DNA of 64,000 nucleotides from Escherichia coli (GTDB lineage Bacteria > Pseudomonadota > Gammaproteobacteria > Enterobacterales > Enterobacteriaceae): NCBI RefSeq assembly GCF_030013595.1, contig NZ_CP122769.1; one strand, written 5' to 3'. Below, in pieces: positions 32,307 to 60,250 of this stretch. Both the position numbers and the translations under genes were made by a program. The number at the start of each line of letters is the position of its first letter. The stretch's first letter is position 1. The notes below the pieces were generated by a model that worked only from the letters and a program-made list of their open reading frames with translations, was not told where the DNA came from and made no database searches.

Positions 32307-32344
32307 ATTATATGTAAACAGCCTCAGCGGCTAATAACCCGTAG
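32307..32344 (-). promoter_or_regulatory. Conserved promoter module, copy 1
   Basis: Minus strand CGGGTTATTAGCC, 16 nt, TATAAT; about 20 nt upstream of the 31990..32286 SD. Confidence 0.6.
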
Positions 32345-32406
32345 CAATATAATTTGCATTTTTTCTATTTCTGAAGACGCTTTTTAAATTAATATTTACT
32401 GAGTTA

Positions 32407-32685
32407 TCACAACTTATTATTCTTCCCGTCTGCTGTTTTATTAATCCCCCAGTTAGTAATCACGCCAAGTCGGCGCAATTTTTCACGTTGTTCATAAATA
32501 AAAAAATCGCCAAGGCAGTCTTTTAAAACTTCACTATCCTGATATTTTATTTTTTGAAGCATCCTCGCAACTATGGCGCGTTTCAGGAATATGGCTGCAT
32601 CAGACTCAAGCATTTGTGAGGACTGTCTGACGGTCTCCTGCATGTCGACGATACTGCTGAGCTTTCGTCTGACCACGCTTAGCAT
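32407..32685 (-). CDS. Hypothetical protein (start uncertain)
   Basis: 92-aa ORF; no clear SD at any of three candidate ATGs. Confidence 0.4.
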   Translation of the reverse strand: MLSVVRRKLSSIVDMQETVRQSSQMLESDAAIFLKRAIVARMLQKIKYQDSEVLKDCLGDFFIYEQREKLRRLGVITNWGINKTADGKNNKL

Positions 32686-32869
32686 AGTGTCCGGGAACCG
32701 CTTAGCGGCTGAATGTAACCCGCAACAACGTTACGCATTGTTTTACTCACTGCAATTTTCCATTTAAGTCTGTTTGTTCCACCAGCTGCTAACATCAGCG
32801 TTATTCATCCTGAGGTTTCGCCCGCGATTGACAGATCAGAGGCAGCATGGATGAAATTGCCAGAGTAGA

Positions 32870-33151
32870 TCACTGCATACGCGAATAGTGGTTTGTATTC
32901 AGTTCTGCGTTTGCCTGCTTTTCCAGTGCTGTCATAACCCGGCGGAGCATCGCCAGAGCCTGAACAGGCGAGCTCCCAAACTGCACTTTCACTTCAGCCG
33001 TATCATGATCCTGAATCAGGTCGAGTATATTCACTTCGATCCCTGCCCCGTTTTCATCTTTTGCCGTGCACTGAATACTTACCCGGGTCACCGAATCCGT
33101 CAGGACTGGCAGTGGGTTAGTTTTGTCTACGTTGATAACAGCCTTCTTCAT
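32870..33151 (-). CDS. Hypothetical protein downstream of ParB-like gene
   Basis: 93-aa ORF; purine-rich SD region. Confidence 0.55.
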   Translation of the reverse strand: MKKAVINVDKTNPLPVLTDSVTRVSIQCTAKDENGAGIEVNILDLIQDHDTAEVKVQFGSSPVQALAMLRRVMTALEKQANAELNTNHYSRMQ

Positions 33152-33171
33152 TGCCCTGTTTCCCCTTGTCC

Positions 33172-33209
33172 TGAAAAAGTTACCGACCCGTCCGGATGGA
33201 GGGGTCGGT
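33172..33209 (-). terminator. Stem-loop/terminator after ParB-like gene
   Basis: Minus strand ACCGACCC-12 nt-GGGTCGGT followed by AACTTTTT. Confidence 0.55.
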
Positions 33210-33216
33210 CAGAAAA

Positions 33217-34401
33217 TCATGACTGTCCCTTGTTCATCTTATCAGCATGCTTACGCAGGTACTCTTTCAGGTCAGCATGAGCGTTGATGATATCGTTCAT
33301 TTCATCATTGGTCAGAACAAGCGTGTAAGTATCAGTACTGACAGATTCACCTTCTTTAAGCTTGGCTTCTTCAGCAATACGTTCAAAAATCGGGATCGCG
33401 GTGTCTGCAATGACGGTCACAGTCTTTTTGTTCAGAACGCTGGACATGGAAGGTGCTTTACCTGCCGGGTTCTGTTTAGGAGCGCTGTCCTTTGGAGCTG
33501 GAGCCGGTTCCTGTACCGGTGGCGTATCCAGCGTCTCCGTATTGCTTTCATCGTTCAGTTGATCCGGTACCGGGGTGTTATCGGTAGTATCATCTGCCGG
33601 TTGCTCAGCACCGATGTTTTCCGGAGTCTGCGGATCTGCCATGCGCTCTTCTACCTTGGCAGCTTTGACGAATTTCAGCGTGTTTTTCGTCGCCTTGCCA
33701 TAGATGGAGATCGCTTTGTTGATGTTATCTACCGCATCCTCACCGCTGTACATATACTCGTCCAGTGCAACGTACATGCTCACCTGATCGCTCACAAGCA
33801 TGGTCTGTAGTTCAGAAGGCAGGTCCAGTACGCGAACCATCTGGCGAAGATGCTGCTCTGATTTACCACGTTTTTTTGCCAGTTCCGCAAAGGTCTTAGG
33901 CTCTTCTTTATCTTCAACCAGACGCTTAATTGAAAGCGCTTCAGCTACGACAGACAGCGCCAGGTTGGAGTTGCCGGTCAGGGTGAAGAGTTCTGCTTTT
34001 GAAGCGCTACCGCGAAACTCTTCGCAGCGAATACGAGTAATGCGTTCACGCCCTTCTGCTTCCAGCTGGCGGTTTGCAATAGCGATGGAACGGATACGGC
34101 AAGCCCCCTGACGCAGTACAGGTACGCCATTAACCATCTGAACAACGATAGGCGTCACGCTGAACGGGTCTTCCATGTAGGCATCGGCCAGGCTGTTCAG
34201 GTGTTCCACAACGTGAGGCATTGAATAGTAGAGCTCGCCCATACCGGCCGTGCGGGTGTTAAAGCCTTCCTGCTCTACAACAACCGAAGGGTCAATGATA
34301 AGGCCGTTGCCTTTACGGGCACCGTTACCAGTGCGTTCCAGGTAACCACGAAGGCTGATTTCGTTGCTGTTGTTTTTTACTTCAGTTTCGATTGCGGACA
34401 T
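33217..34401 (-). CDS. Orphan ParB/KorB-like DNA-binding protein (no adjacent ParA)
   Basis: 394-aa ORF; ParB N-domain arginine patch variant VLRQGACRIRSIAIA (cf. GERRxRA); HTH-like FAELAKKRGKSEQHLRQMVRVLDLP; acidic/Pro linker; C-terminal domain. Confidence 0.65.
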   Translation of the reverse strand: MSAIETEVKNNSNEISLRGYLERTGNGARKGNGLIIDPSVVVEQEGFNTRTAGMGELYYSMPHVVEHLNSLADAYMEDPFSVTPIVVQMVNGVPVLRQGACRIRSIAIANRQLEAEGRERITRIRCEEFRGSASKAELFTLTGNSNLALSVVAEALSIKRLVEDKEEPKTFAELAKKRGKSEQHLRQMVRVLDLPSELQTMLVSDQVSMYVALDEYMYSGEDAVDNINKAISIYGKATKNTLKFVKAAKVEERMADPQTPENIGAEQPADDTTDNTPVPDQLNDESNTETLDTPPVQEPAPAPKDSAPKQNPAGKAPSMSSVLNKKTVTVIADTAIPIFERIAEEAKLKEGESVSTDTYTLVLTNDEMNDIINAHADLKEYLRKHADKMNKGQS

Positions 34402-34446: not shown

Positions 34447-34484
34447 ACAATACCAGGTTCGACATTTTTCCTAATAGGTTGCGG
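34447..34484 (-). promoter_or_regulatory. Conserved promoter module, copy 2 (variant) driving ParB-like gene
   Basis: Minus strand CAACCTATTAGGA, 16 nt, TATTGT; a palindromic box starts 8 bp upstream of it. Confidence 0.5.
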
Positions 34485-34491: not shown

Positions 34492-34502
34492 AAAGTAACT
34501 TT
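34492..34502. repeat. Palindromic box, copy 13 (gaAAAAGTAACTTTTTt), abutting the ParB-like promoter
   Basis: Read directly. Confidence 0.85.
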
Positions 34503-40353: not shown

Positions 40354-40512
40354 TTATATCATTGGCGCTAACACCAGGATAGCAAATACCTCCCTTGTTC
40401 CGTCTTTCATCCGCAACTCGCAAAGCGAGTTTCGTGTGAGCCAGGTGAATATCAACAGCGTTAAACAAACTATTAATATGCACAAAACAATGGGTTGGTT
40501 CGGCATTTTCAT
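40354..40512 (-). pseudogene. hok: Hok-family membrane toxin gene with IS21-derived C-terminus
   Basis: [45 protein letters not shown] matches Hok; after codon 46 the frame enters the IS end (LVLAPMI stop) instead of LAYESGK. Confidence 0.85.
40374..40378. repeat. 5-bp target-site duplication CCAGG (right copy)
   Basis: See 38243-38247. Confidence 0.85.
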
Positions 40513-40560
40513 GGCCTTCTTCTCCTTGCATTTAAGCAGGCAAGAGGCTACGCTGTGTGT

Positions 40561-40617
40561 GACTAGCATACAGGGGCCTCGGGTTAATTGAAAAATTACT
40601 CGGGGCTTTCTGCTTTT
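40561..40617 (+). ncRNA. sok: Sok-like antisense RNA (ends approximate)
   Basis: Plus-strand TTGCAT, 17 nt, TACGCT promoter at 40526-40554; antisense to the hok leader; ends in a CCTCGGGTTAATT/AATTACTCGGGG hairpin plus a T-rich run; layout as in R1 hok/sok. Confidence 0.5.
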
Positions 40618-40673
40618 ACCACAGTCAAACAGTGTTACCGCTGGCTGGGGCAAAAGCCTCCAGCACCAGCGTC

Positions 40674-41969: not shown

Positions 41970-42074
41970 ATTATATCCTTAAGCCAACACGAACTGCGCC
42001 ACAAAAATTAATGTGGCGCAATTTACCATAAACAATAAACATCAGATACCCGTGAAGAGATTTCCCTTTATTTT

Positions 42075-42112
42075 AAAATTCTTCTGGAGAAAAAATGATA
42101 TTTCCAGAAGAA
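42075..42112 (-). terminator. Stem-loop/terminator
   Basis: Perfect 10-bp inverted repeat TTCTTCTGGA / TCCAGAAGAA with 14-nt spacer, followed on the minus strand by TTTTAAAAT. Confidence 0.5.
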
Positions 42113-42194
42113 GTCAGCGAAATTCAGAAACGGCCATCACAATGGTGCTGCGCTGACGCTGGCGTTCTGCCTTGCGCTGCCTGCGGCGATAGAT

Positions 42195-42290
42195 CTATTT
42201 TGCGCTGACGTAAGGGCAGTCCTCACGGGTATACCAGCAGCAGCCGCAAGGTTCGGGCCGGGGTTTTCCGGCAAGTCCAAATGGTTTCAT
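42195..42290 (-). CDS. Possible 31-aa Cys-rich peptide (below ORF-track cutoff)
   Basis: MKPFGLAGKPRPEPCGCCWYTREDCPYVSAK; AAGGTG SD; stem-loop downstream. Confidence 0.3.
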   Translation of the reverse strand: MKPFGLAGKPRPEPCGCCWYTREDCPYVSAK

Positions 42291-42343
42291 CAAGTCACCT
42301 TTTTAATATTTTTAATGGCAAGATACTTCCCTAACACATTGTT

Positions 42344-42655
42344 TTATCGCATATAACGCTGTTGCATAAACAGATACAGATAACCCTCAGGAGAAAACAT
42401 GCAAAGGTTATCAGTGATAACCGCATCCAGATACCGAGTGTCAGTCTGTAAACGTTTTATCACCAGAAAATGTGCTGCCGCAGCCTTAATGCCAGAACTA
42501 CCGTTTACAACATTATGTATACCCGCTTCGAATAACGAACGAGCATGAATTACCTTTTCCCGGGCCGCTTCGATCTCCGCATTAATAACGCATTGCCGCG
42601 CCTGGATGACTGCCTCTCCGGTTAAATCGCGGAAATTCATTAGAGATGTGATCAT
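42344..42655 (-). CDS. Hypothetical protein
   Basis: 103-aa ORF; GGAGAG SD; conserved promoter module upstream. Confidence 0.6.
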   Translation of the reverse strand: MITSLMNFRDLTGEAVIQARQCVINAEIEAAREKVIHARSLFEAGIHNVVNGSSGIKAAAAHFLVIKRLQTDTRYLDAVITDNLCMFSPEGYLYLFMQQRYMR

Positions 42656-42682
42656 GATTAACTCTCCAGATTATGTGGAATC

Positions 42683-42719
42683 ATTATAACAACTGGCATC
42701 CCGCCACAAATAACCTGAG
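42683..42719 (-). promoter_or_regulatory. Conserved promoter module, copy 3 (variant)
   Basis: Minus strand CTCAGGTTATTTGTGG, then TATAAT with 16-nt spacing. Confidence 0.55.
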
Positions 42720-42877
42720 AAAAATTCTTTGAAATATTCCTATATATAAGGAATTACAGTCGGAAAAGAAACGATGAAATAGCGCCGACCGCTTAAAATC
42801 GATAAATTAAAATGGACGGCACTGGAATGAAAAACTGAAAGTAGTAAGACCGTAATTATCCTTCACGGATGTAAGCT

Positions 42878-43078: not shown

Positions 43079-43117
43079 GGCTTTGCACCTGCTTTTAGGC
43101 AGTTTGGTTACTGGTTA

Positions 43118-44644: not shown

Positions 44645-44648
44645 AGGC

Positions 44649-48795: not shown

Positions 48796-51180
48796 TTATA
48801 CGACCTGCCTGACCATCCTCATCAGAAGGCGGTTTAACAGTCCTTTCGCTGTCGGGCGATTGCTATCGACATAGTAAAAACCTGTTTTGGTCGTACCGTG
48901 AGCACTGCTCAGCACCCTCAGTTCCCAGATAACGTCACGGATAACGCCGCCATTTTCTGGCTTAAGGCATTCAGATAAATGGCGCATGAAACGAGCTCTT
49001 ACGGCACGGTAATAGCGGAACTCCTCTGGCTGGTTAGTATTTTCTTTCACCCGGAGTCGCTGGTTACACAGAGTTAGAACTGCATCCATCATTCCCGCCT
49101 TCAGCTTCGCCTGGATCGCACCTTGTTGCTGTTCCCTCTCACCTTCGAGTAACGTTAAGATTCTTTCTCCGAGTGCCGTCTTGTTGTGTACGTGCAACTG
49201 TACACAGGCAGCTACGCATGCCCAGAATCTGAACTTTTTTATCTGTCCACGCAATTTCCGGGCTACAACCTGACGGTATGCAGTATCGCTGAGTATTTTA
49301 AAACGCCGACTGGCAACCAGCTCTGGAAGCGACACTCTTTCGCCTATCCCCAGGCGGGAAAAGGTTTGTCCCCGTTGTGCGAGACGATGATAGACAGCGC
49401 CCTTCCCTTTTGAAATTCGGACCGCGCCATAACGAAGAAGATACTGAGCAGCAGTCGTTGGAGTAAACTCACCGTCAGCGATGCTCTGGCGTAACCCGTC
49501 GTATTCATGCCAGATAATCCAGGACGCCGTATCTTCTTCAACAGTCAGCTCATCCTCTTCCTCGAATGCCACGACGACAGAACTGCTCTCTCCGGTCTTT
49601 AGGCTACGTGAAGCCCTGGGGTCAGCCTGCCCGTCAAAATAGGTCATCAGCGGCAACGTATCAGTCAGTCCATCATAAGCTGTACCGAACCGGCCTCCGG
49701 GCAGTTTCATCCAGAGTGGAGCTGGCATTGGTGTACGGGCCACAGGCAGCATGTCAGGCTCATCCTCAAGAAGGTCCAGATCGGCCTCTTCCCAGACTCT
49801 GCGATAGATCTCAATTGCCCGAAACGGGCGAGGGTTGAAACAGTGCAACGACCAGAGGAAATCAACGTGGATCACGTTTGCTTCATGTACAAGCCGAAAT
49901 TGTGGCTCAGCCATACGACGGTTATAAGCCGTATCGTCCACCTCGCCGGAAAGTAGCTTTCTGCGATGCTTTGCCGCACGTCTGGCTTCAACATAATCAA
50001 GGCTGCAACAGACATGAAAAAGACGTTCAGTCAGGGACGAAGAAAAGATATTGGGTTGAAGACGCACATACCCGCCTTCGAACACTTTACGACCGATATA
50101 ATCCCGCAGGCTCCAGTCGTACTGGATCTTAGAAAGAAATCGCTGAAGACGACTTAGGCCTGCCTGATAACCATATTTCTCAGGGTCAGTGCGAAGGAGC
50201 GTTTCCATTGAATGGTCAACCCCTACGGCTGTGCAAAGCGAGCACCCATATCTAGCCCCACAAGCTGAGGTTCGCGTGGGTTTCTCCGGCGACCAGATAC
50301 ACTCTCCGGTGGCGTCTTTATAAAGCGTTGCCAGGCTGAAGTTATCCGGCATAAAGCTTGGTAAAGGGAAGCGGGATTCGGAACCACAGGCCATTAGAAA
50401 AGACCAGATGTCCTGAGTGCGCCACTCCTTTACTGGATAGAGTTCACCACCGTGCTCAGTCAGGGTTACTTTCCTCGCCTGCCCTCCCATTTTGAGGATA
50501 TTTCCGGCCCTTCGGGCACTTTCATCATCCCTGGAGCCCAGCATCAGGCATACCCTGCTTCGTACGGATGCCGGGGCGTTTTTTAGATAACGAGCTTTGG
50601 CCTTGCGCAGGGGGGCGATTTTGTAGTCGGTTGAGCACTGACGGGTTGAAGAATTAGTCCAGGTCGGAAGTCCACGTCCAGTCAGAATGCGGCCTACCCA
50701 GCTCTGCGTAAGAGACGGTTGGGCGACAAGGACTGTGACCGGTAGCTGGTGTTCAGCAATGAACATTCTAAGCTGGTTGAGAACCTGTGAAGCCTGATAG
50801 TGCATCTCAGGGTTTTCGATCAGCGTATCGGACATCTGAATGAAATGATGTTCGCTGATATTTGTGCCGTTACGTACTGCCCTGATCAATGCCATCAGAA
50901 ATAGGTGAAGAAGAGAATGGGAGTCTTTACCGCCACTGTATCCCACGCACATCGTCCATCCGTCCGTAATAGCCTGATAAATAGCAGATGTGGCTGACGT
51001 GACCAGAGAAGAAAGACTCACAGTCTCCTTTTCATCGGTATAGTTCAGATCGGCATCGGTTGTCAGGGTCTCCCAAACATCAGCCCATTTATCATGTTTC
51101 AAAATGGCAGCATTAGCCGCCTCAGGAAAAATAACTTCTGAGGGTAATTCAAGGAATGAGTCACTTTTTTCAATAAACAT
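48796..51180 (-). CDS. Large PP-loop ATPase of the PAPS-reductase/DndC-like family
   Basis: 794-aa ORF; PP-loop VGYSGGKDSHSL; RQCSTDYKIAPL, LGSRDDESARRA and ACGARYGCSLC parallel the DndC RWCT..KIxP, RxxES and FGCWxC blocks; about 400-aa unknown C-terminal extension. Confidence 0.7.
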   Translation of the reverse strand: MFIEKSDSFLELPSEVIFPEAANAAILKHDKWADVWETLTTDADLNYTDEKETVSLSSLVTSATSAIYQAITDGWTMCVGYSGGKDSHSLLHLFLMALIRAVRNGTNISEHHFIQMSDTLIENPEMHYQASQVLNQLRMFIAEHQLPVTVLVAQPSLTQSWVGRILTGRGLPTWTNSSTRQCSTDYKIAPLRKAKARYLKNAPASVRSRVCLMLGSRDDESARRAGNILKMGGQARKVTLTEHGGELYPVKEWRTQDIWSFLMACGSESRFPLPSFMPDNFSLATLYKDATGECIWSPEKPTRTSACGARYGCSLCTAVGVDHSMETLLRTDPEKYGYQAGLSRLQRFLSKIQYDWSLRDYIGRKVFEGGYVRLQPNIFSSSLTERLFHVCCSLDYVEARRAAKHRRKLLSGEVDDTAYNRRMAEPQFRLVHEANVIHVDFLWSLHCFNPRPFRAIEIYRRVWEEADLDLLEDEPDMLPVARTPMPAPLWMKLPGGRFGTAYDGLTDTLPLMTYFDGQADPRASRSLKTGESSSVVVAFEEEDELTVEEDTASWIIWHEYDGLRQSIADGEFTPTTAAQYLLRYGAVRISKGKGAVYHRLAQRGQTFSRLGIGERVSLPELVASRRFKILSDTAYRQVVARKLRGQIKKFRFWACVAACVQLHVHNKTALGERILTLLEGEREQQQGAIQAKLKAGMMDAVLTLCNQRLRVKENTNQPEEFRYYRAVRARFMRHLSECLKPENGGVIRDVIWELRVLSSAHGTTKTGFYYVDSNRPTAKGLLNRLLMRMVRQVV

Positions 51181-51352
51181 ATATTTTCCTGAACCACGGC
51201 ATATGCTGCATCACTGATATTTTTATTAGAACTTTAAAATAACTACAGCGCAACCATTTAGCGAAATTATATTAAATCAAAATCACGCAAATTTAATTCT
51301 TAAATAGATTTAAAATAAAAACCCATTGTAATTTAATCTCCCAGCACAGCTA

Positions 51353-51802
51353 TTAGATATAGGTTGGTGGTGTAATAAAAGCCGTGACATTTGTTTTCAA
51401 CTCAGACAGCGGAATTGAAGGAGTGTTAAGAGTCATGTCATCACCACAATGGCGTGGTAGAGCAGAAAGCTGAAATGAATCTTTCATCACCCTAATAACC
51501 GGGCATTCCGTACGTGCTGATGGCATTACTTCCCGCAGCATCGCTTCCTGCCTTGTGCTATCGCTATGCTTATATTCATCCTGGTCTGTTATTTCTTGAA
51601 TTTCATCTTCACCACAAAATGACCAGTTAGCGTCATAGAAGTAAAACTCAGTTAACTGAAGATCGTTTTTTTTCACGTATGTCGCCAATTTGCGGATACG
51701 CTGTTCAAGCATTGTATCTATCCGTAAGGAAACACTTTGCGGAACATCACTTGCAAAGTCATTGATGCAAACAACGGTAGATACTATGAATTTATTGGTC
51801 AT
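51353..51802 (-). CDS. Hypothetical protein
   Basis: 149-aa ORF; GGAG SD. Confidence 0.55.
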   Translation of the reverse strand: MTNKFIVSTVVCINDFASDVPQSVSLRIDTMLEQRIRKLATYVKKNDLQLTEFYFYDANWSFCGEDEIQEITDQDEYKHSDSTRQEAMLREVMPSARTECPVIRVMKDSFQLSALPRHCGDDMTLNTPSIPLSELKTNVTAFITPPTYI

Positions 51803-51853
51803 GGCAGGCTCCAGGCCACCGGGGGAACCGGTGGCTACGGTTATCAGGCAGGC

Positions 51854-52645
51854 TTATGCGCCGCAAAGGGTGTCAAGGGAAGGAAGAAGCTTGCTCAGCT
51901 TGTCGTAATCGAGCGGAGACAGTTCTGTAACGAGTTCGACCGAAAGACTGGTGTTGTCTTCTTCACTCAGAATATAGATTCCGTCTTCTGGCTCTTTTCC
52001 GGCACATGCCTTCAGTCGTCTGTTAACGACCTCCTGGGCTGAATCCGCTACGTCGCAGCTCAGGACATAGCTTGCCACATAGCTGCTCTCACCGTGGTAA
52101 TGCGTCACTTTACACAGAGCATACTGGATACCGGCTTTGTGAGCCTCATTCATGAGACGAGAAAACTGACAGCCATCCTGGTAATAGTGGGTATCCTTTG
52201 TGACCAGAATAGTCATACCCCCAAATTCATCTGTCCGGCTTTTACTGCATGTAAATGCAGCAGTAATTGTTACCATTTCCGGGAGGTCGAATACCGACAG
52301 CACGGCAGTTGTGAGGCAAATTGCATGGTCAAGATCAATAGTCTCTCCATGAAAAACTGACAGCCCACTGCTGTTAACTTCTGTTGCGAACGACAGTTCA
52401 TAATTACAGTCTGGGCAGGATGGTTGCCCAAAGCTCGGCTCTGAAGGGTCATACTCAGGGTGGTTCTCAATAATACTGAGAATCAGCTTCTCAGTCAGAG
52501 AACAATCTGCCAGTGGCTTATCAAGCAAACGCTCACCTTCTGCAATTTCTGCTTCGGTAACGAATGTGATTGCTTCTTGTGCCATTTTAGCCTGCTCCTG
52601 AGTGCAGGGAATAATAAACGACGCCAGAGTATAATTATCTGCCAC
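51854..52645 (-). CDS. Hypothetical protein
   Basis: 263-aa ORF (GTG start) with AAGGAG SD; conserved promoter module upstream. Confidence 0.6.
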   Translation of the reverse strand: MADNYTLASFIIPCTQEQAKMAQEAITFVTEAEIAEGERLLDKPLADCSLTEKLILSIIENHPEYDPSEPSFGQPSCPDCNYELSFATEVNSSGLSVFHGETIDLDHAICLTTAVLSVFDLPEMVTITAAFTCSKSRTDEFGGMTILVTKDTHYYQDGCQFSRLMNEAHKAGIQYALCKVTHYHGESSYVASYVLSCDVADSAQEVVNRRLKACAGKEPEDGIYILSEEDNTSLSVELVTELSPLDYDKLSKLLPSLDTLCGA

Positions 52646-52687
52646 AGTTGACTCCTTGATTATTTAATTAATGTATTTGATGAGAAG

Positions 52688-52726
52688 ATCATAACAAACA
52701 CACTACTACCAACTAATAACCTGAAG
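52688..52726 (-). promoter_or_regulatory. Conserved promoter module, copy 6
   Basis: Minus strand CTTCAGGTTATTAGTT, 17 nt, TATGAT. Confidence 0.55.
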
Positions 52727-52814
52727 TCGTTTTTTTAGAAAAAATATTAAGAAGAATATGAACACCACCTCATCTTAAATTAATATTGTTCAGGATTAAT
52801 ATTCATTTTTGCAA

Positions 52815-52840
52815 ATAAAAACCGCCAGACGGCGGCTTTT
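52815..52840 (-). terminator. Rho-independent terminator
   Basis: Minus strand AGCCGCC-GTCT-GGCGGT followed by TTTTTATTT, 30 nt after the stop at 52872. Confidence 0.6.
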
Positions 52841-52871
52841 ATAAAGAGGGAAATATCATTGGAAGCTGAAA

Positions 52872-53129
52872 TTACTTCACGGCAGGCCGACAAATTACGC
52901 GACTGCTGTGAGCTGAAGCGAAACTTGTAGAGGAAACTATAATCACCTTTTCTAAGTCGTCGGCACTGTCGGCAATATGATGCCGAAAAGCCTCCTCTGC
53001 ATCACCAGGGGAATCGGCTTCGACCGGGTAGGCCTGATCATCATCATCAAACATAATGCGCCCGGAAATGAGATAAAGTCGGCTCAAATCTGGCGTCGCT
53101 GCGCTCGTGCTTCGTTCGTTCAGATTCAT
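52872..53129 (-). CDS. Small acidic hypothetical protein
   Basis: 85-aa ORF; ACGGAGAA SD. Confidence 0.55.
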   Translation of the reverse strand: MNLNERSTSAATPDLSRLYLISGRIMFDDDDQAYPVEADSPGDAEEAFRHHIADSADDLEKVIIVSSTSFASAHSSRVICRPAVK

Positions 53130-53194
53130 TTTTTCTCCGTCTGTTGCTCGTAAAAAGAATGACGCCGGTTTAAAAGGCGTCGCCAGGGTTCAGG

Positions 53195-53521
53195 CTAAAA
53201 CGCAGGGTTGCCATCGAGGAAGCTCATTGGCTGGCCAATAGCGGATGCCACCCTGAGAATTTCACCTGGTGTGGCATAGCGCAGCATTTCTGAGCGTCCA
53301 AATTTCTGATACTCATCTACTGACATCTTTCTCCACTCGGGGTGAGGATCTTTTCCGCACAGTGACCAGTTGCTTTCAGAGGAATCACGACGGAGAACGT
53401 ACACATCAAGCGAGGCTGTAAGCCCGCTTCCATATCCCCGCTGCGCTACAATACGAACCTGAGAACCATCGTCGCGTTGCAACGTCTGGGTTAATTTCGT
53501 GATAGGATCCTGAGAATGCAT
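53195..53521 (-). CDS. Hypothetical protein
   Basis: 108-aa ORF; GAGGT SD. Confidence 0.6.
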   Translation of the reverse strand: MHSQDPITKLTQTLQRDDGSQVRIVAQRGYGSGLTASLDVYVLRRDSSESNWSLCGKDPHPEWRKMSVDEYQKFGRSEMLRYATPGEILRVASAIGQPMSFLDGNPAF

Positions 53522-53559
53522 GCCATTTACCTCGTTTTTAAAAGAATTACCGTAAGTAA

Positions 53560-53598
53560 ATGATACCGAATCGAGAATTCTGGCTAATAGGTCAGAAG
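53560..53598 (-). promoter_or_regulatory. Conserved promoter module, copy 7 (variant)
   Basis: Minus strand CTTCTGACCTATTAGCC, 16 nt, TATCAT. Confidence 0.5.
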
Positions 53599-53727
53599 AA
53601 AAAATATTGCATATTTTTGAAGTGTAGGATAATGATTAGAATAAAATGGCCTGAATAAATCGTTAGCTTTAACTCTGCTTATTTCAGAAAAACTCTGAAT
53701 TAGTAGTGATGGAAAACGACGCGGTGA

Positions 53728-53738
53728 AAAGTAACTTT
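53728..53738. repeat. Palindromic box, copy 18 (ggtgAAAAGTAACTTTTacacc)
   Basis: Read directly; 130 bp upstream of promoter module copy 7; flanks extend the palindrome (GGTG..CACC). Confidence 0.85.
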
Positions 53739-53762
53739 TACACCGCAATTCAGAAAAAAGTT

Positions 53763-54083
53763 TCAGTTAGTCACATTACGAATAACCCGGCTTACTTTCG
53801 CATGTGCGTTCCCCTGCATGTTAAAGTAAAGCCCTCCGGGCAGACTCGTCGCCCACTTAACGCCTCGCTCAGCCATACGCTTCGGTGTTTCCAGCCAACC
53901 ACGAGGAATATTGCCCGGAACGTTACCGATAACCCGTCAAATGCATGCTGCTACCCGGATGCCGCCGGGAATATCGCATTTGGATTCAACAATATGCATG
54001 ACCTCAGATAAAGCACCATGCCGCTGGACATGATCGCCAATGTGCAACTCGATAGGAGAAGCCATTTCTGAATCTGACTTCAT
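53763..54083 (-). pseudogene. Gene with in-frame TGA at codon 49 (48-aa product, or 106 aa if read through)
   Basis: ATG 54083 with AAAGGTGG SD; frame MKSDSEMASPIELHIGDHVQRHGALSEVMHIVESKCDIPGGIRVAACI-TGA-RVIGNVPGNIPRGWLETPKRMAERGVKWATSLPGGLYFNMQGNAHAKVSRVIRNVTN. Confidence 0.5.
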
Positions 54084-54363
54084 ATCTGTCCACCTTTAAT
54101 TTAGAAACCGTCTAAATTACCAAATTAGTTAATCCAACAACATCTGTATCACAACCATCAATTTGTTTTTGTTGGGTCTATATCGTAGAAACAAGTGAAT
54201 AATGAATACACTCGTTAATACAGACAACCGGAAATGAATGACTACCTGATTATCTCAGCGGTATATGCTAAGCCGTTAATATTGCCATTCTCTGGTGGAA
54301 CCACTGCTAAATGAATAAACCGTTTGTCGCTTCAAACCACTTTATCAAAACCGTTAACTTGCA

Positions 54364-55614
54364 TTAAGTCCGATACAGTTCGGCGAGCTCATCCAGCATG
54401 GGGTTACTCTTATATCCCGGTGCGGCCGTAAAAAGGTTTCGGGAAATCGCCAGCCACTCCATGATTTTGTCCGTCGCCAGCCAACGTCTGCCAAGTCGCT
54501 CGGCTGCGATGGGGACTTTATGCAAGCCAGCGAAGGGATCTACAACAAGATCTCCCGGCTCTGTCAAAAACTCAATCAGAAACGCTGCAAGCCTGGTAGG
54601 AGACGTTGCACCGTGCAGCGGAAAACCGAGCTCGCGGGCAATGGAATGGCAAAATCTCGTATCAGCGCAGCTATTGCCGTAAAACAAAGTATTCTTGGGG
54701 ATCGTTCCTTCTGTTTTATTTCCAAAGGAACCGCTTTTAAGCTGGTACGCCCCATCACCATAAAAGGTCGTGCGATTTTCACCGCCTGCTGCCTGCAATT
54801 TTAGATGCTGGTCTGAATGCGGTTGTAGTACACGTAAGTTGTTTGAACGAACCTTACTCGCATCATTGGTAAACCACAGCACAGGCTCATACGATGAGCA
54901 GAGCTGCACCCGTTGCTTACATGCCCAGTGCGTTGGCGATGGGGGCTTACTGCGATTCACCCACTGAAGCCTGTCCATGAGCTCAAGCCCCAGCTTGTCA
55001 CATAATGCCAGTGTCAGACGCTCCAGATACAGAGAACGTGAAGGCCTACCCCTATTAAAGCTATCTTGAGTGATATTCAATGCCACACTTGCGCCCGGTA
55101 CAAGCTGTTTCACGATCGGTTCGAGGATACGCAGAAGCCAGTCAATATAAGCCTGCTCGCCACGCCCCCCTCCGTGCCCGTAGTCTCTTGAATTTCGAAG
55201 GAGGTAAGGTGGCGAGGTCAGGCAAAGATGAATTTGCTCGGTGATATTGCTGAAGAAGGCATAGGCGTTTCCAAAAACCGATGCCCCAAGAGAAGTTGAG
55301 AAACCGACAACACAGAGCTTTTCCCATGACTCATGCAGGTTTGTTTTCGTCTTAGAGGCGTATCTCCAGACGCCCCGTTTTTCTGGAACGCGTTCGATGA
55401 CCCCGGCCTGACGGAGAGTCTGCTGAAACCAGCGAACCTTATGTTTGACGCCGCTGGTTCTGGTTTTATCTGACCCAAATTCTTTCAGTTCGTGCAATTC
55501 GGCATCCGACATGCCAGTTTTACGCTGCACTTCGCGATAAAGCTCGTCGTTGGTCAACGGCGATTCGGAGGCAGCGTAGATATGCGCAATTAAGTCCGTA
55601 TTAATCGTACTCAT
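54364..55614 (-). CDS. Orphan DNA methyltransferase (beta-class N4-C/N6-A, SPPY type) with extra N-terminal domain
   Basis: 416-aa ORF; catalytic motif IV CLTSPPYLL precedes SAM motif I VVDPFAGLH..ERLGRRWLATD (IV-before-I order). Confidence 0.75.
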   Translation of the reverse strand: MSTINTDLIAHIYAASESPLTNDELYREVQRKTGMSDAELHELKEFGSDKTRTSGVKHKVRWFQQTLRQAGVIERVPEKRGVWRYASKTKTNLHESWEKLCVVGFSTSLGASVFGNAYAFFSNITEQIHLCLTSPPYLLRNSRDYGHGGGRGEQAYIDWLLRILEPIVKQLVPGASVALNITQDSFNRGRPSRSLYLERLTLALCDKLGLELMDRLQWVNRSKPPSPTHWACKQRVQLCSSYEPVLWFTNDASKVRSNNLRVLQPHSDQHLKLQAAGGENRTTFYGDGAYQLKSGSFGNKTEGTIPKNTLFYGNSCADTRFCHSIARELGFPLHGATSPTRLAAFLIEFLTEPGDLVVDPFAGLHKVPIAAERLGRRWLATDKIMEWLAISRNLFTAAPGYKSNPMLDELAELYRT

Positions 55615-55782
55615 CAGCCATCCTAATGGGGATACAGTTATTATATCGGCCTGATGGTTGGAAGTGAGATTACTAAATCAGACCGATCTGGTTTGTTGAA
55701 GACTTTGCCAAATCATGCAGCACAGCTGGGCTTGCACAGAGCGAGCCGGGCTCCTTTAGCGGAGACACCTTCGCAAGTTGGA

Positions 55783-56391
55783 TTAATCAGCCTCAAGATT
55801 CTGGAACTCAATGAGCTTTTGCTCACACTCCTCCCTGCCCCACGATCCCTGCCAGTCACAGATGTCCCGGTACTTACTTTCCAGCTTATCCATCTGTGCG
55901 AGATTAGCTGTTGCGAAGTCTGTCCATATGTCATGCCAGCAAGCGTTGTACGTAACGCCAGCTGGTGGACAATACTCCATTGCATCAGCATTAATAATTT
56001 CAACGCGAAGATCGGTTGCAAACGAGGCTGCAACGAGGTTAATAACATCCTGTTCTTTTTCGATTACCGTGACATGGGTTACATCGTCTTTCTGAAGAAT
56101 GGCGTGGAGCACCATACCAAGACCAAGACCATTAATGAGCACCCGCCCGGTGGCTCGCTCTATAAAATCCTGGCAGGTTCGGATCTCCATCGGGGTATTG
56201 GACATCACCACATCCCAGCCGTTGGACAAGCGGCGATATCTACCGGGCGGGATAAACTCATCTGTATTACCAGTACACTCGGCACGAAGGGCGAGGGTCA
56301 GCGCCTTATCTGTGGTAATTTCGAAAGTGTCCAGTTTCCAAGTTCCGGACTTGCCGTCTTTAACGGGTAAATCAGAAAAGCAGCTCTTCAT
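55783..56391 (-). CDS. Class I SAM-dependent methyltransferase-fold protein
   Basis: ORF with VLINGLGLGMVLHAIL..VTVIEKEQDVI (GxGxG SAM loop plus acidic residue); start uncertain (ATG 56391 or TTG 56403). Confidence 0.6.
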   Translation of the reverse strand: MKSCFSDLPVKDGKSGTWKLDTFEITTDKALTLALRAECTGNTDEFIPPGRYRRLSNGWDVVMSNTPMEIRTCQDFIERATGRVLINGLGLGMVLHAILQKDDVTHVTVIEKEQDVINLVAASFATDLRVEIINADAMEYCPPAGVTYNACWHDIWTDFATANLAQMDKLESKYRDICDWQGSWGREECEQKLIEFQNLEAD

Positions 56392-56546
56392 CGAGGCAAC
56401 CAAAATTCCAGTAGTTTTGTTACGCTGAACCTACCACAAACCCGCTCTTAATGAAGGCATCAGGAGCGATAGCGATCTTTGAGGCATCGTTTAAAACAGC
56501 GGCATCCTGTAACAGACACCCGATATTTTTTTTAATGCCGCAGGTG

Positions 56547-56804
56547 TTAAAGGTAGCGTTGCAAAGTTGCAACATCTTCAGGGGCAACCTCCACGCAGCT
56601 CCTGACACTGTAGTGATTTTCGCCGTTGTAGTCATAAACCCCACCGTCTTCAAAACTCAGCTGTTCAACCTCGCCAGCACACTCGGAAATCAGTGCCGTC
56701 TGGCAAGCATTTTTCTCACAATCGCTGACGAGTATACGAACATAGCTTTTCTCATGGTCGCCGTTACGGTTCTGGATCTTTACGATAAAGTGTTTTTCAG
56801 ACAT
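56547..56804 (-). CDS. Small hypothetical protein
   Basis: 85-aa ORF; preferred over overlapping ORF 56420..56653. Confidence 0.5.
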   Translation of the reverse strand: MSEKHFIVKIQNRNGDHEKSYVRILVSDCEKNACQTALISECAGEVEQLSFEDGGVYDYNGENHYSVRSCVEVAPEDVATLQRYL

Positions 56805-56868
56805 TTGTGCCTCCAGCTCAGGTTGAGGTTAATTTAGCGTTGCCCCGGTTCACCGGGGCAAGAATAAA

Positions 56869-57297
56869 TCAACCCTTAATGAAATTGTGCCCCCAGGTGT
56901 TAGGCTTAAATGCCTGCTCTTTGATATATGTTTTCATTACCTTGCAGGTTTTTTTCAGGGCTTTGGTATTGGCATCGGTTACTGGGATAAAATGGCGAGA
57001 ATGACGGTTTTCCCGGTACTGCTTATCAGCGTTTGGGTCAATTGCTTCGCTTTGCAGGAGCCCTTCGTGCCTGCCAATTACTATTACGTAGTTCATTTCA
57101 CCTGAAACACGATCCGTGAGTAATTGAAGGGAAATATCAGCTGCTCGCGTGGCCTGGCTTGCAGATATTTTTGCATGCAAGAAAGCCCCCTTTCTGAATT
57201 TGGCCGGAGTTAGCCCTGTAATATCCTCAACACTAAAATTAAGTGAGGAAAGAATTGAAAATAAGTCGCAGCTAATGACTTCAGTATTATTAGGCAT
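56869..57297 (-). CDS. Hypothetical protein
   Basis: 142-aa ORF. Confidence 0.55.
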   Translation of the reverse strand: MPNNTEVISCDLFSILSSLNFSVEDITGLTPAKFRKGAFLHAKISASQATRAADISLQLLTDRVSGEMNYVIVIGRHEGLLQSEAIDPNADKQYRENRHSRHFIPVTDANTKALKKTCKVMKTYIKEQAFKPNTWGHNFIKG

Positions 57298-57391
57298 TTT
57301 ACCCGTCCCCGTCCATATTCATGATACGGTAATGATACCAGGTCGATATCATTACCTAATAACTTGGTGAAAGAAAATCTGTAATTTTTAG

Positions 57392-57769
57392 TTAACTAAA
57401 ATTAATAGTCTCAATACTGCTCAAGAATTCTTTTTTTACGTCCGGTGTAAAAGGTATACGTTCAATGTATTTATAAAGTGTCGCAAATGTTTTGGGTTCA
57501 ATGTTTCGGGAGATAATGTCATCAATCGGATCTTCGAACATATTGATAAAGATATCGACATGCTGCTCTCCGCTTTCTGATGCCTTTGAAAGAAGACTGA
57601 CCACTTCAATGTAGCGATTATCCTGCTCTGCAATGAACAACCAGTGCCCTTCGTTAAAGGCGGGTGCAGCGCTGTAGCGTTTAACAACAATTTCTGAAAG
57701 ATTATATCCTGCCTGATTCAGCAGATTATTAAAGTTGAGTTGAGTTGAAATCACGTCTAACGTTTTCAT
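57392..57769 (-). CDS. Hypothetical protein
   Basis: 125-aa ORF; AGGAGG SD; conserved promoter module upstream. Confidence 0.6.
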   Translation of the reverse strand: MKTLDVISTQLNFNNLLNQAGYNLSEIVVKRYSAAPAFNEGHWLFIAEQDNRYIEVVSLLSKASESGEQHVDIFINMFEDPIDDIISRNIEPKTFATLYKYIERIPFTPDVKKEFLSSIETINFS

Positions 57770-57793
57770 AAAACCTCCTTTTCATCTGTACTT

Positions 57794-57830
57794 ATTATAC
57801 TGTTACCCAACCCCCAGCTAATAACCTCCC
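57794..57830 (-). promoter_or_regulatory. Conserved promoter module, copy 8
   Basis: Minus strand GGGAGGTTATTAGCT, 16 nt, TATAAT. Confidence 0.6.
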
Positions 57831-57939
57831 AGCAAATTTTCAGAAAAAAAACACCGCCTTTTATTTAAGATTGAACACATCCTTTTTAAATACCAACAAT
57901 GATTATGAAACCACAATGTAAGTGAAGCGCCATTATGGA

Positions 57940-57950
57940 AAAGTAACTTT
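57940..57950. repeat. Palindromic box, copy 19 (ggAAAAGTAACTTTTgtg)
   Basis: Read directly; 110 bp upstream of promoter module copy 8. Confidence 0.85.
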
Positions 57951-58176
57951 TGTGCAGCTCATAAATTTTATTTATTAGTTACGTTCCTTTGTCTTGTGGT
58001 CGAAGTTCATCAGGCGAGGCCTAAGAAGAATATGTGTGGTTTCAGCCAATGCGGTGATCGGGCATTATAATTTGGTCGGGCTATTATACGTGGGTAAAGG
58101 TAGTGGTAGGGAGAGGATCAGGTTAAATTGCATTTTCCCGGTTGCCTTCCCTGGCCTACCGGTTTCAGGTCAGACG

Positions 58177-59358
58177 CTAAGACCAGCGGTAATACTTAAA
58201 GTAGTCCTCATTTACAGCCAAAAACTCCCTTAAACCGTTCATTAATCCCTTTTCAAACGCTGTAACGATAAACCGGTATCCGTCCAGTGTTTCAATGTAG
58301 TAGATCCCGCCCGGTGTTATTCCAACATGCAACACCTCGGCTGTCATCATAAACTGGCCTTCCGGAAAATCATGCGACAGGTATATAAAACCCGTCGTGG
58401 CCGGTGCGGGTGTGGCATTCACTAAGACACCGTTAAACTGCTGCCCGTGCCTCGCCGGTACAAGCTCACTTCCCCTGGTTGACTTATCGAGCAGCCCCTT
58501 AACATCTTTTTGCTCTTTAGATGAGGTATAGCCCCGCACATCACTCCCATCACCTGGGCGAGAGCCGGTGCCGACATGTGCAAGACGACGGTAAGCGCTG
58601 CGCATATTGATGTGGCAGGATGCCCCGGCTCTACCCTGAAGCCTTACGCCAAAATCTTCGCAAAGTAATAAAATCTGACGTAGCTGGTGTTCATACACGG
58701 ACGCAGAAAGTGAAAGGTTGAAACTGGAAAAGGTCAGTTCTAAAACCTTTTCCCGTTTGTCATTGAAATGTGCTTCCAGCCTGATGATTGGCTTTTCCGA
58801 CATTGCAAAAGCTTTGTCCGTTGCTCTGTACCGGCATTCATCTCCGAAACATTCTTCAACAACGCTGGCTATAACCGTGTCGTGATCGCCATCTTCCGGA
58901 GCTGGCACAAAGATTTCAAATTGTGCCGGTGTCTCCGGCTCCAGCAGAACGGGATATAAACGCGGAGAATTAAGCAATGCGCATTCAGAATTAATGAGCT
59001 TAACCCAGGCGCTTTTGTCGTCCGGATCCTTAAGCTGCTGTCCAAGGTTATCGCAAAAGTCTACTATCTGACGGGTATGCTCATCCGTGACTGCACAGAT
59101 CAGGTTAAGACCATGCGTGGCCATACTCAATTCCCGGGTTCGGGACTGGGAATTGATCGACCAGGGGTTAAGTGAAAGCGAAATAGGGCTTATGGAAGGG
59201 ACGACCGTCTCATTCTGCAAATCTGTAAGCTGGCAGTTCGCAGTAGGCTTCGGGGAAAGGGTACTAAATATGTAACTTGCCTGTTGTTTAGTACTGGCCT
59301 GGATATAAAACATCGCGTCCATGCTTGTATCCCGGGATGAAATTGAAAATAGCTTCAT
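58177..59358 (-). CDS. 393-aa protein of unknown function, translationally linked to the HigB-like toxin
   Basis: ATG 9 nt after the toxin stop (TAAGGTTAAAAATG); no HTH or other motif recognised. Confidence 0.6.
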   Translation of the reverse strand: MKLFSISSRDTSMDAMFYIQASTKQQASYIFSTLSPKPTANCQLTDLQNETVVPSISPISLSLNPWSINSQSRTRELSMATHGLNLICAVTDEHTRQIVDFCDNLGQQLKDPDDKSAWVKLINSECALLNSPRLYPVLLEPETPAQFEIFVPAPEDGDHDTVIASVVEECFGDECRYRATDKAFAMSEKPIIRLEAHFNDKREKVLELTFSSFNLSLSASVYEHQLRQILLLCEDFGVRLQGRAGASCHINMRSAYRRLAHVGTGSRPGDGSDVRGYTSSKEQKDVKGLLDKSTRGSELVPARHGQQFNGVLVNATPAPATTGFIYLSHDFPEGQFMMTAEVLHVGITPGGIYYIETLDGYRFIVTAFEKGLMNGLREFLAVNEDYFKYYRWS

Positions 59359-59366
59359 TTTTAACC

Positions 59367-59663
59367 TTAATGGATGAGCGATTTATAGTCATGTGCTGAC
59401 AAATGGACATTATGTGCGCCATCATTCCATTCAAAGAATAATCGATACTTAGAGTTTACTCGAATGGAGGAATAACGGTTTGACGTCATTCTTAAGCGTT
59501 CATAACGCAAGCTGTTGGATAATAACTCCCGCTCACTCTGGACATTATCCAGCGTTTCGAGTCGACACAGAATCGCGTTAATAATTTCAGAAGGAATACC
59601 TGCCGTTGTTTTTCCATTACGGAAGAACTTTTCAAGCCGTCTGTCTTTAAATGAATGGATCAT
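59367..59663 (-). CDS. higB: HigB-like (RelE/ParE superfamily, 'plasmid maintenance system killer') toxin
   Basis: 98-aa ORF; MIHSFKDRRLEKFF..G..IP.., ..RYERLR....YSIRVNSKYRLFFEWNDG.A..V.L..DY matches the MIxSFxxK..E..F / SIRIN..WRI.F.W pattern of this family. Confidence 0.7.
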   Translation of the reverse strand: MIHSFKDRRLEKFFRNGKTTAGIPSEIINAILCRLETLDNVQSERELLSNSLRYERLRMTSNRYSSIRVNSKYRLFFEWNDGAHNVHLSAHDYKSLIH

Positions 59664-59712
59664 AGTTCCTCCGTAATAATTGACCTTAAAATTAAATTAA
59701 AAGGGCTTTGAA

Positions 59713-60183
59713 TTAATGAATCCCTAAAATGCGGGCGGCGACTGCCAGCTGCTTATCACTTAACTGACGCTGGTGGGTTAAAGAAGACTTAAGGCTTTCC
59801 AGAAAATTATTACTGCTGGATTGCTGGGTGATTGCATCAACCATTTTTTGATGAGATCTGCACCATGCATTGAACGCAGAGTTGTGGGCGTTTTCAGTCC
59901 TCAAACGCTCGTTTTGCAAGGATGCTGACACTTTGCGGGCAGCTTGAGCATTAATGCGGTACAGCGCATTCAGCGTGTAAGAAGTGCGGGTCGTTTCGAG
60001 GCTGTAACCCGTGGCTTTACAAGCCATACAGCGACTTCTATAAAAATGCTTACGCTCTCCCCGACCATTGCATTTATCGCAAAGAATACGAAAAGTATAT
60101 TCCGCAGTACCTTTTACAGAATCAACACAGCGGATTTTTGCGCTGGAGATTTCAATTCCACTGCGATCATAATATTTGGTCAT
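59713..60183 (-). CDS. Zinc-finger (DnaJ-type CxxCxGxG) protein of unknown function
   Basis: 156-aa ORF; CDKCNGRG and CMACKATG repeats; GGAGGA SD. Confidence 0.6.
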   Translation of the reverse strand: MTKYYDRSGIEISSAKIRCVDSVKGTAEYTFRILCDKCNGRGERKHFYRSRCMACKATGYSLETTRTSYTLNALYRINAQAARKVSASLQNERLRTENAHNSAFNAWCRSHQKMVDAITQQSSSNNFLESLKSSLTHQRQLSDKQLAVAARILGIH

Positions 60184-60213
60184 AATGTGATTCCTCCGGT
60201 TAGTTCTGGAGTA

Positions 60214-60250
60214 ATCATGACAGAATGAATCTACTGGCTAATAACCTGAG
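60214..60250 (-). promoter_or_regulatory. Conserved promoter module, copy 9
   Basis: Minus strand CTCAGGTTATTAGCC, 16 nt, CATGAT. Confidence 0.55.

Follow-up and report, generated by a model that had tools for sequence, protein, structure and literature searches.

A promoter module repeated along the IncHI plasmid gene array, with a conserved box at the -35 region that is a predicted operator of a plasmid-encoded regulator

The 64,000-nt stretch of DNA analysed here (below, the window), a part of Escherichia coli contig NZ_CP122769.1, belongs to an IncHI2 plasmid with MOBH, mcr-1-type backbone, and carries an array of co-oriented genes in which separate genes and operons are headed by one and the same promoter module. 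In this module a box with the 10-bp constrained core GTTATTAGCC takes the place of the -35 element and is followed, at a nearly fixed distance, by a TATAAT-like hexamer. The copies are sigma-70 promoters of one family, and the box is predicted from its conservation to be a selected protein-binding site; at least ten promoters of the same design apparently point to a single previously undescribed regulator. The reading that we prefer, with a probability of about one half, is that the box serves as an operator at which a global repressor encoded by the plasmid covers the -35 region.

Structure of the module and its excess over chance

A position weight matrix was built from nine boxes that an earlier note, made from the sequence of the window, had located upstream of minus-strand genes, and the scores were compared with those of 100 dinucleotide shuffles. 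Seven hits of at least 15 bits were found in the window, all on the minus strand and all at the claimed sites, against a mean of 0.34 and a maximum of 2 in the shuffles. In the leave-one-out mode seven sites scored 10.6-19.4 bits, while the boxes at 34469 and 53582 scored 6.6 and 7.0, respectively; judged by their own sequence these two are degenerate, and orthology supports both. All nine boxes are followed by a -10-like hexamer, which is far beyond chance, since such a hexamer is expected at 16 or 17 nt with a background probability of 0.038 for each site. The complete sequence was scanned on a near-identical 232-kb plasmid assembled complete (NZ_CP117034.1, further referred to as the record), and gave eight hits of at least 15 bits, all with a -10-like hexamer 16-17 nt downstream; the distance to a start codon is 57-97 nt for the seven window hits, and the eighth hit lies 64 nt upstream of a plus-strand gene at record 208315. 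The alignment and the matrix scan of the plasmid and its relatives, which had been proposed in the earlier note, thus confirmed the excess and yielded further copies and orthologues.

The anatomy of the module was deduced from an alignment of 26 copies from three lineages, namely IncHI2, IncHI1 (Vietnamese plasmid L007, with the same sites in R27) and IncHI1B (pMB4528_1). The DNA upstream of about -44 contains tracts of T and of A like those of UP elements, and the core occupies positions from about -38 to -29. The spacer is 16 nt long in 24 of the 26 copies, its sequence being not conserved, and the -10 hexamer is TATAAT-like and extended by TGn in 17 copies (6 of the 10 minus-strand copies of the window, all ten of which have a TATAAT-like hexamer with A at position 2 and T at position 6). 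A perfect TATAAT was found in 6 of the 9 copies without TGn and in 2 of the 17 with it, and this trade-off suggests that the -10 element is selected for its intrinsic strength. The asymmetric box is in all cases directed towards the gene and has a weak dyad GGTTA-T-TAGCC in which 4 of 5 pairs are complementary. A generic scan for sigma-70 -35/-10 pairs missed all the copies, since TTAGCC agrees with TTGACA in 3 of its 6 bases, just as a poor -35 had been suspected before; the consensus TTGACA itself was adopted in 0 of 26 copies. The suggested involvement of a dedicated sigma factor was not borne out, as the -10 element, with its frequent TGn, is of the canonical sigma-70 type and not that of an alternative sigma factor.

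Terminator-like hairpins upstream of several copies indicate that these copies head separate transcription units. A strong inverted repeat, TAACCTGAGCAGAAAAGTT...AACTTTCTGCTCAGGTTA, lies at 45024-45075 (z = -3.75 for folding as single-stranded DNA); it is unique to the copy at 45009, its hairpin is located upstream of the promoter and its right arm coincides with the left half of the box.

Copies of the module on the IncHI2 plasmid

For the nine copies described earlier (boxes at 32329, 34469, 42705, 45009, 46286, 52711, 53582, 57816 and 60236), all coordinates proved to be correct, the start codons agree with the open reading frames (ORFs) or with coding sequences annotated in RefSeq, and the -10 hexamers (TATAAT in four copies, TATATT, TATGAT, TATCAT, CATGAT and TATTGT) and the spacing (16 nt in eight copies and 17 nt at 52711) were given accurately. 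The count itself was too low, since a tenth copy is present at 57354, a weak one at 1320 on the plus strand, and three more outside the window (Table 1). The profile score of the tenth copy, 24.5, was obtained with a profile to whose building set this copy belongs. The candidate at 1320 is conserved in R27 (TTCAACTTGTTAGTT, 17 nt, TATACT), and the profile hidden Markov model (HMM) failed to recover it. Altogether, about 13-14 candidate copies are carried by the IncHI2 plasmid, including the weak ones at 1320(+) and record 227653(+).

Of the longer gaps that precede array genes in the window, most have either the module (10 cases, with a distance from box to start codon of 57-97 nt) or no recognisable box. 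No copy was found ahead of any tra operon in the scan of the whole plasmid. Three DNA methyltransferase genes are located downstream of module copies, at 54364-55614 in the window and at record 209160 and 227747.

Table 1. Module copies and other features of the window and of the record (spacing is the distance in nt from the box to the -10 hexamer).
Feature	Position	Strand	Box, spacing and -10, or other data	Context
Module copy	32307-32343	-	TACGGGTTATTAGCC (32329-32343), 16 nt, TATAAT (32307-32312)	5' of ORF 31990-32286 (98 aa) and downstream operon
Degenerate copy	34447-34483	-	CGCAACCTATTAGGA, 16 nt, TGG-TATTGT	5' of 394-aa ParB-HTH gene 33217-34401
Module copy	42683-42719	-	CTCAGGTTATTTGTG, 16 nt, TGT-TATAAT	5' of ORF 42344-42655 (103 aa)
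Consensus copy	44987-45023	-	CTCAGGTTATTAGCC, 16 nt, TGT-TATATT	5' of DUF957/DUF3085 operon, start 44960; orthologues conserved
Module copy	46264-46300	-	TCCAGCTTGTTAGCT, 16 nt, TATAAT	5' of ORF 45976-46203 (75 aa)
Module copy	52688-52725	-	TTCAGGTTATTAGTT, 17 nt, TGT-TATGAT	5' of operon 51854-52645 / 51353-51802 / PAPS-reductase-family gene 48796-51180
Degenerate copy	53560-53596	-	TCTGACCTATTAGCC, 16 nt, TATCAT	5' of ORF 53195-53521 (108 aa)
Tenth copy	57332-57368	-	ACCAAGTTATTAGGT (57354-57368), 16 nt, TGG-TATCAT (57332-57337)	5' of ORF 56869-57297, then genes including DNA methyltransferase 54364-55614
Module copy	57794-57830	-	GGGAGGTTATTAGCT, 16 nt, TATAAT	5' of ORF 57392-57769 (125 aa)
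Consensus copy	60214-60250	-	CTCAGGTTATTAGCC(AG), 16 nt, TGT-CATGAT	5' of operon: 156-aa zinc-finger protein 59713-60183, HigB-like toxin 59367-59663, 393-aa ORF 58177-59358
Possible distant member	1320-1357	+	TTCAGCCTGTTAGTT, 17 nt, TATACT, 13.8 bits	5' of ORF 1410-2021 (lipoprotein homologue)
Copy outside the window	record 208251	+	at least 15 bits	just right of the window; 5' of diverging operon with N6 methyltransferase
Copy outside the window	record 139978	-	GCGTTATTAGAC, 16 nt, TGG-TATGAT (profile HMM)	
Marginal copy outside the window	record 227653	+	profile HMM, marginal	5' of Dam methyltransferase
Palindrome AAAGTAACTTT	34492-34502		one of 17 exact window copies	8 bp upstream of box 34469
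Exact AAAGTWACTTT palindromes (starts)	485, 2950, 5043, 11955, 15015, 15410, 20271, 22001, 26903, 34492, 34618, 43741, 45948, 48679, 53728, 57940, 63143			
394-aa ParB-type HTH protein	33217-34401	-	Pfam HTH_ParB 7e-6; PDB ParB chains 1.6e-4	behind one module copy and two palindromes
IS66-family element	27.3-29.7 kb			interrupts the region
Plus-strand gene cluster	35.5-37.8 kb	+		
IS21 element	38.3-40.3 kb			insertion inside the array
hok/sok toxin-antitoxin locus	40355-40668		Rfam sok, 81 bits	adjoins IS21, inside the array

Conservation in related plasmids

The array is syntenic in IncHI1, with proteins 43-90% identical, and in IncHI1B, and the module was found at orthologous promoters of the gene for the ParB-type helix-turn-helix (HTH) protein, the DUF957 operon, the zinc-finger/HigB operon and the genes for the 98-aa, 103-aa and 108-aa proteins. 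In ungapped comparison of IncHI2 with IncHI1/IncHI1B at these promoters the identity is 92% in the core and 87% in the TGn-plus-hexamer element, against 60% for the left part of the box (CTCAGG) and 49% for both the spacer and the upstream 30 nt. Such a footprint is, as read from the alignment, one of strong purifying selection on the 10-bp site and the -10 element in a fixed register and not on the spacer. The proposal that these are not nine independent promoters was therefore right, in that they make up one family sharing a selected site; as to the claimed extension of the conservation further upstream, the constrained part is the core, and CTCAGG is conserved at only 60% between lineages.

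Individual boxes are retained in the other lineages as well. The orthologues of the copy at 32329 in IncHI1 and IncHI1B have GGTTATTAGCC/T and TATAAT, the boxes orthologous to that at 42705 are GGGTTGTTTGG and GGGTTATTTGG, and in IncHI1 the copies at 52711 and 60236 correspond to GGTTATTAGG, which is kept, and TTCAGGTTATTAGCCAG, respectively. The degenerate copy at 53582 has an IncHI1 orthologue CTTATTAGCCAGA with TGG-TAAAAT, in which TTATTAGCCAGA is kept. The other degenerate copy, at 34469, has decayed in IncHI2 from a normal box, because both IncHI1 and IncHI1B carry the full CTCAGGTTATTAGGA at the same place.

Beyond these lineages, a homologous array including the ParB-HTH, DUF957 and DUF6012 genes was found on the Klebsiella MOBH plasmid L011 (NZ_CP034040.1), where positions 6771-18830 contain six copies of another conserved module, ATAGGGGyTTGa-N17-TATCCTGGt; several of these are preceded by an AAAGTWACTTT palindrome. 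The box was absent in promoter context from the sampled regions of IncC, IncA and pSTW0522-type plasmids, and among the elements examined it occurs only on IncHI1, IncHI1B and IncHI2. Since the Klebsiella array uses another module and the sampled IncC and IncA regions have no box, the factor reading it is expected to be plasmid-specific rather than encoded by the host, and a host-factor site is probably not what the box represents.

Putative function of the box

According to the repressor reading, the box would be an operator for one plasmid-encoded DNA-binding protein. The A/T tract and the extended -10 element would let the host RNA polymerase fire without a good -35, and the protein would sit on the -35 region, keeping the regulon low in established cells; in a newly entered cell, free of the repressor, a burst of expression from the regulon would follow. 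A repressor seems to be the most probable kind of factor because the tract together with the extended -10 should suffice without a good -35 element. Conjugative plasmids typically pair strong promoters with global repressors, and those of IncP-1, IncN and IncW plasmids act in this way.

The only expression data that were found concern R27, whose microarray ORFs were mapped onto the array by gene order with hok (R0101), IS10 (R0076, R0085), corA (R0096) and the end of the H operon (R0115/R0116) as anchors. The operon R0108/R0109, which has a good box and a promoter with the perfect TATAAT, gave about 20 units under all four conditions and was scored as not expressed (Gibert et al., PMC7366339), and the less securely mapped block R0062-R0066 gave 11-118 units (PMC7366339). 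Genes with degenerate boxes are expressed, with 1175 units for R0098 and 2196 units for R0104, the ParB-HTH gene (PMC7366339). These values, mapped by gene order, give a weak indication that better boxes go with lower expression in the R27 array. In the htdA mutant no derepression was observed for R0108/R0109, nor for R0062-R0066 (PMC7366339).

Several considerations weigh against a repressor. Probe intensities vary about 10-fold inside one operon (339 units for R0088 and 3093 for R0089), with the ORFs mapped by order, and the best-box operons could just as well be silent because H-NS acts on the A/T tracts or because an activator is missing. An activator replacing the -35 element would be equally consistent with the rigid 16-nt register and with a box placed on the -35 region. 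The asymmetry of the box, with nothing more than the weak dyad GGTTA-T-TAGCC, would be unusual in the operator of a dimeric repressor. The search for a candidate repressor gave none: Pfam and NCBIfam searches with 70 ORFs yielded no small HTH or ribbon-helix-helix protein, and the AlphaFold model of the 156-aa zinc-finger protein (predicted local distance difference test, pLDDT, 80) matched no PDB entry significantly and no DNA-binding fold. Finally, no 5'-end data for IncHI plasmids were found in the searchable literature.

The main rival, which we consider possible but rather unlikely, holds that the box is a -35 surrogate read by a plasmid-encoded activator that contacts or remodels region 4 of sigma-70, so that the regulon is switched on, in a manner resembling class II or PhoB-type activation or the MotA box of phage T4 with AsiA. 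The location of the core exactly at the -35 place, where the hexamer itself is poor (3 of 6 matches), the distance of 16 nt from box to -10 in 24 of 26 copies despite a scrambled spacer sequence, and the asymmetry and constant orientation of the box all agree with this, and the background level of the best-box operons in R27 under four conditions would be the same if the activator were absent. However, activator-dependent promoters are usually weak in their core, and here the -10 is near consensus, often extended and placed behind A/T tracts; the genes that are expressed (R0098, R0104) are those with degenerate boxes, opposite to the prediction; and the searches of the 70 ORFs detected no MotA-, AsiA-, PhoB- or Ogr-like protein.

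It is improbable that no dedicated factor is involved and that a single promoter was duplicated with gene cassettes, the box being kept for the host RNA polymerase (sigma region 4 and the alpha C-terminal domain), even though the 16-17 nt spacing and TTAGCC are compatible with weak direct recognition by sigma-70 and the modules are plainly homologous to each other. The conservation of 10 bp (92% against 49% in the flanks) reaches beyond any -35 hexamer, TTGACA would suit the polymerase better and is found in none of the 26 copies, the sister plasmid lineage conserves another box in the same hosts, and a TATAAT promoter stays at the background level in R27. Still less credence is given to a site of a chromosomal transcription factor of the host exploited by the plasmid. 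Such an origin would agree with the fact that no plasmid-encoded regulator could be named; against it, a different box is used by related plasmids that share the enterobacterial host range, and among the elements examined this one is confined to the three IncHI types. To our knowledge, the box resembles no operator of E. coli or Salmonella.

Promoters active in single-stranded DNA (of the Frpo/ssi type) or remains of a repeated mobile element, the latter named in the earlier note as a possible refutation, are highly improbable: all the genes are directed at oriT, as leading-region genes are, and the copy at 45009 adjoins a strong hairpin, but five of six modules fold as single-stranded DNA no better than shuffles (z from +0.96 to -1.3), the only strongly folding region (z -3.75, at 45009) has its hairpin upstream and borrows the left half of the box, no inverted copy of the box lies nearby, and the similarity between copies ends within about 60 bp (about 45-60 bp being shared), without terminal repeats and with orthologous positions in three lineages in a fixed orientation.

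The AAAGTWACTTT palindrome and the ParB-like protein

A palindromic box had also been noticed 8, 110 and 130 bp upstream of three copies; it is real, being represented by AAAGTWACTTT at 34492, 57940 and 53728, and is a separate and far more abundant motif outside the promoter module. The palindrome is mostly extended to AAAAGTWACTTTT. With no more than one mismatch it occurs 22 times in the window against 1.9 in shuffles, and on the whole plasmid there are 42 copies against about 0.2 expected from base composition. According to the ORF list, 14 of the 17 exact window copies are intergenic, and two flank the oriT gap. In the segment of about 65 kb with tellurite, Tn7-like, metal-resistance and mcr genes (record 78-143 kb) the palindrome is scarce (three copies); it is abundant also in IncHI1, IncHI1B and the Klebsiella lineage and was absent from the sampled IncC and IncA regions. 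Four palindromes (34618, 43741, 45948, 48679) share the flank AAAGTWACTTTyCyGGnTG, three of them being located 143-162 nt upstream of start codons. A minus-strand repeat pair, TTATAC...GTGATGTAAT, has one member (43634-43670) upstream of ORF 43397-43600 and the other (48724-48760) in the gap that precedes ORF 48307-48546; this pair and the palindromes with the shared flank may represent further promoter classes.

Since the palindromes cluster directly upstream of the ParB-HTH gene in every lineage (two in IncHI2, two in IncHI1, three in IncHI1B and six on the Klebsiella plasmid), their co-location suggests that the 394-aa ParB-like protein is a candidate binder of the palindrome and not of the box; by analogy, the palindrome may be a site like the KorB operator OB. 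A bolder scheme, which we regard as unlikely, is a two-part silencing system of IncHI plasmids, similar to KorA/KorB and assembled from unrelated parts, in which a reader of the asymmetric GTTATTAGCC box would cooperate with the ParB-like protein bound at the 42 palindromes, or else the reader of the box would be a new activator redirecting sigma-70. If true, the two-part system would control a 35-kb gene block, possibly with anti-defence or establishment functions, on plasmids spreading mcr-1 and typhoid multidrug resistance.

Search for the regulator

The 70 ORFs searched against Pfam and NCBIfam comprise the array and its neighbours. Very few families were matched: the ParB-type HTH of the 394-aa protein, a HigB-like toxin, two methyltransferases, the PAPS-reductase and HNH domains, and DUF957, DUF3085, DUF6012 and DUF5417. 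A DnaJ-type zinc finger was recognised in the 156-aa protein encoded behind the best box, and the 14 homologues of this protein are confined to IncHI-like plasmids; an MqsA-like reading of the AGGTTA half-site was rejected, as this adjoining protein does not have the MqsA fold. The 97-aa ORF 43780-44073, with a winged-helix-like sequence, is absent from IncHI1 and cannot encode the common factor. The model of the 98-aa protein of the first gene (pLDDT 47) was unusable. A link to TrhR/TrhY/HtdA was rejected too: no box stands upstream of the tra operons, and R0108/R0109 are silent in the htdA mutant as well.

The plasmid and the gene array

A test stretch of 20 kb (42000-62000) is 100% identical to many IncHI2 plasmids of 200-290 kb from Salmonella, E. 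coli and Enterobacter; the record, one of such relatives, is typed as IncHI2A with a MOBH relaxase and MPF_F, and only small indels distinguish it from the full 64-kb window. The Tra1 region is located at 5-26 kb and includes the F operon, two ORFs at the position of R27 trhR/trhY and the mobI-mobH-traD operon, with the presumed oriT gap at about 14.9-15.6 kb inside it. An array of about 45 genes, all on the minus strand, extends from about 30 kb past the right end of the window; the module-bearing array, of about 35 kb and composed of mostly uncharacterised co-oriented genes, lies between the Tra1 relaxase operon and RepHI2. Its units encode three orphan DNA methyltransferases, the ParB-like protein, a PAPS-reductase-family protein, a HigB-like toxin and DUF957, DUF3085 and DUF6012 proteins. 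The genes flanking oriT on either side are all directed towards it, and umuDC is located across oriT from the array; by analogy with SXT the umuDC side might be the leading one.

About 40 conserved array ORFs (30-64 kb) belong to no Pfam or NCBIfam family, and the families of two array ORFs that were searched among 5.8 billion proteins (14 and 29 homologue clusters) are confined to IncHI-like plasmids. The HigB/RelE-like toxin gene 59367-59663 is followed by the conserved 393-aa ORF 58177-59358, for which no Pfam hit, no PDB sequence match and no recognisable antitoxin domain were found; at these two loci RefSeq calls a shorter coding sequence "flavin reductase".

Significance

As carriers, IncHI1 and IncHI2 plasmids are of major importance both for multidrug resistance in Salmonella Typhi and for mcr-1 and extended-spectrum beta-lactamase genes in E. 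coli, Salmonella and Enterobacter, and about one-fifth of the IncHI backbone is a conserved gene block lacking known function. A 2026 analysis detected no complete anti-defence system in the IncHI1A plasmid group (PTU-HI1A) and left the establishment of R27 in new hosts as a question (PMC13478746). The shared promoter-operator marks a set of co-regulated genes, including three orphan DNA methyltransferases; the box can be used as bait for the regulator, and on/off behaviour at plasmid entry is predicted. The regulation known in IncHI plasmids (TrhR/TrhY, HtdA, H-NS/Hha) concerns the tra operons, which are without the box. For this important group of plasmids the finding is of use and can be put to the test, though its kind is not surprising.

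Comparison with known systems

Neither the box nor the palindrome was found to be described in the searchable literature, including that on IncHI promoters, leading regions and R27 ORF names. As in a global-repressor regulon, the same putative operator is repeated across several promoters of backbone or establishment type and is conserved in IncHI1 and IncHI1B. The conserved upstream (CUP) elements and the ArdK/ArdR regulon of the IncN plasmid pKM101, reportedly described by Delver and Belogurov in 1997, are alike in that a repeated promoter-plus-operator cassette heads separate operons that point the same way and adjoin the transfer region, the operons there being composed of establishment and anti-restriction genes. 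The CUP elements exceed 100 bp and their repressor is known, whereas about 45-60 bp of unrelated sequence are shared by the IncHI modules and no ArdK-like protein was recognised.

The KorA/KorB system of IncP-1 plasmids (RK2/RP4) likewise has a short operator at a fixed position in many strong promoters, along with a dispersed 13-bp palindrome bound by a ParB-family protein, to which the 42 copies of AAAAGTWACTTTT and the ParB-HTH gene would correspond, the binding being suggested by co-location. The KorA operator is a perfect 12-bp palindrome over the -10 element, unlike the asymmetric IncHI box over the -35 (-38 to -29), and no KorA homologue was found among the plasmid ORFs searched. In the repressor network of the IncW plasmid R388 (ArdK, StbA, KorA, TrwA and others), which Fernandez-Lopez is said to have described in 2006 and 2014, strong backbone promoters are held by a few plasmid repressors with repeated sites and give a transcriptional overshoot after transfer; its sites and proteins are unlike those of IncHI, where the module is known from sequence. 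The middle promoters of phage T4, relevant only if the factor is an activator, have a conserved box of 9-10 bp (the MotA box at -30) that replaces the -35 at a fixed distance from a good, often extended, -10, as in the IncHI module; the T4 box has another sequence and needs MotA together with AsiA, no homologues of which were seen on IncHI plasmids. Taken together, these comparisons place the IncHI module outside any named family and nearest in function to CUP/ArdK of IncN, KorA/KorB of IncP-1 and the R388 network.

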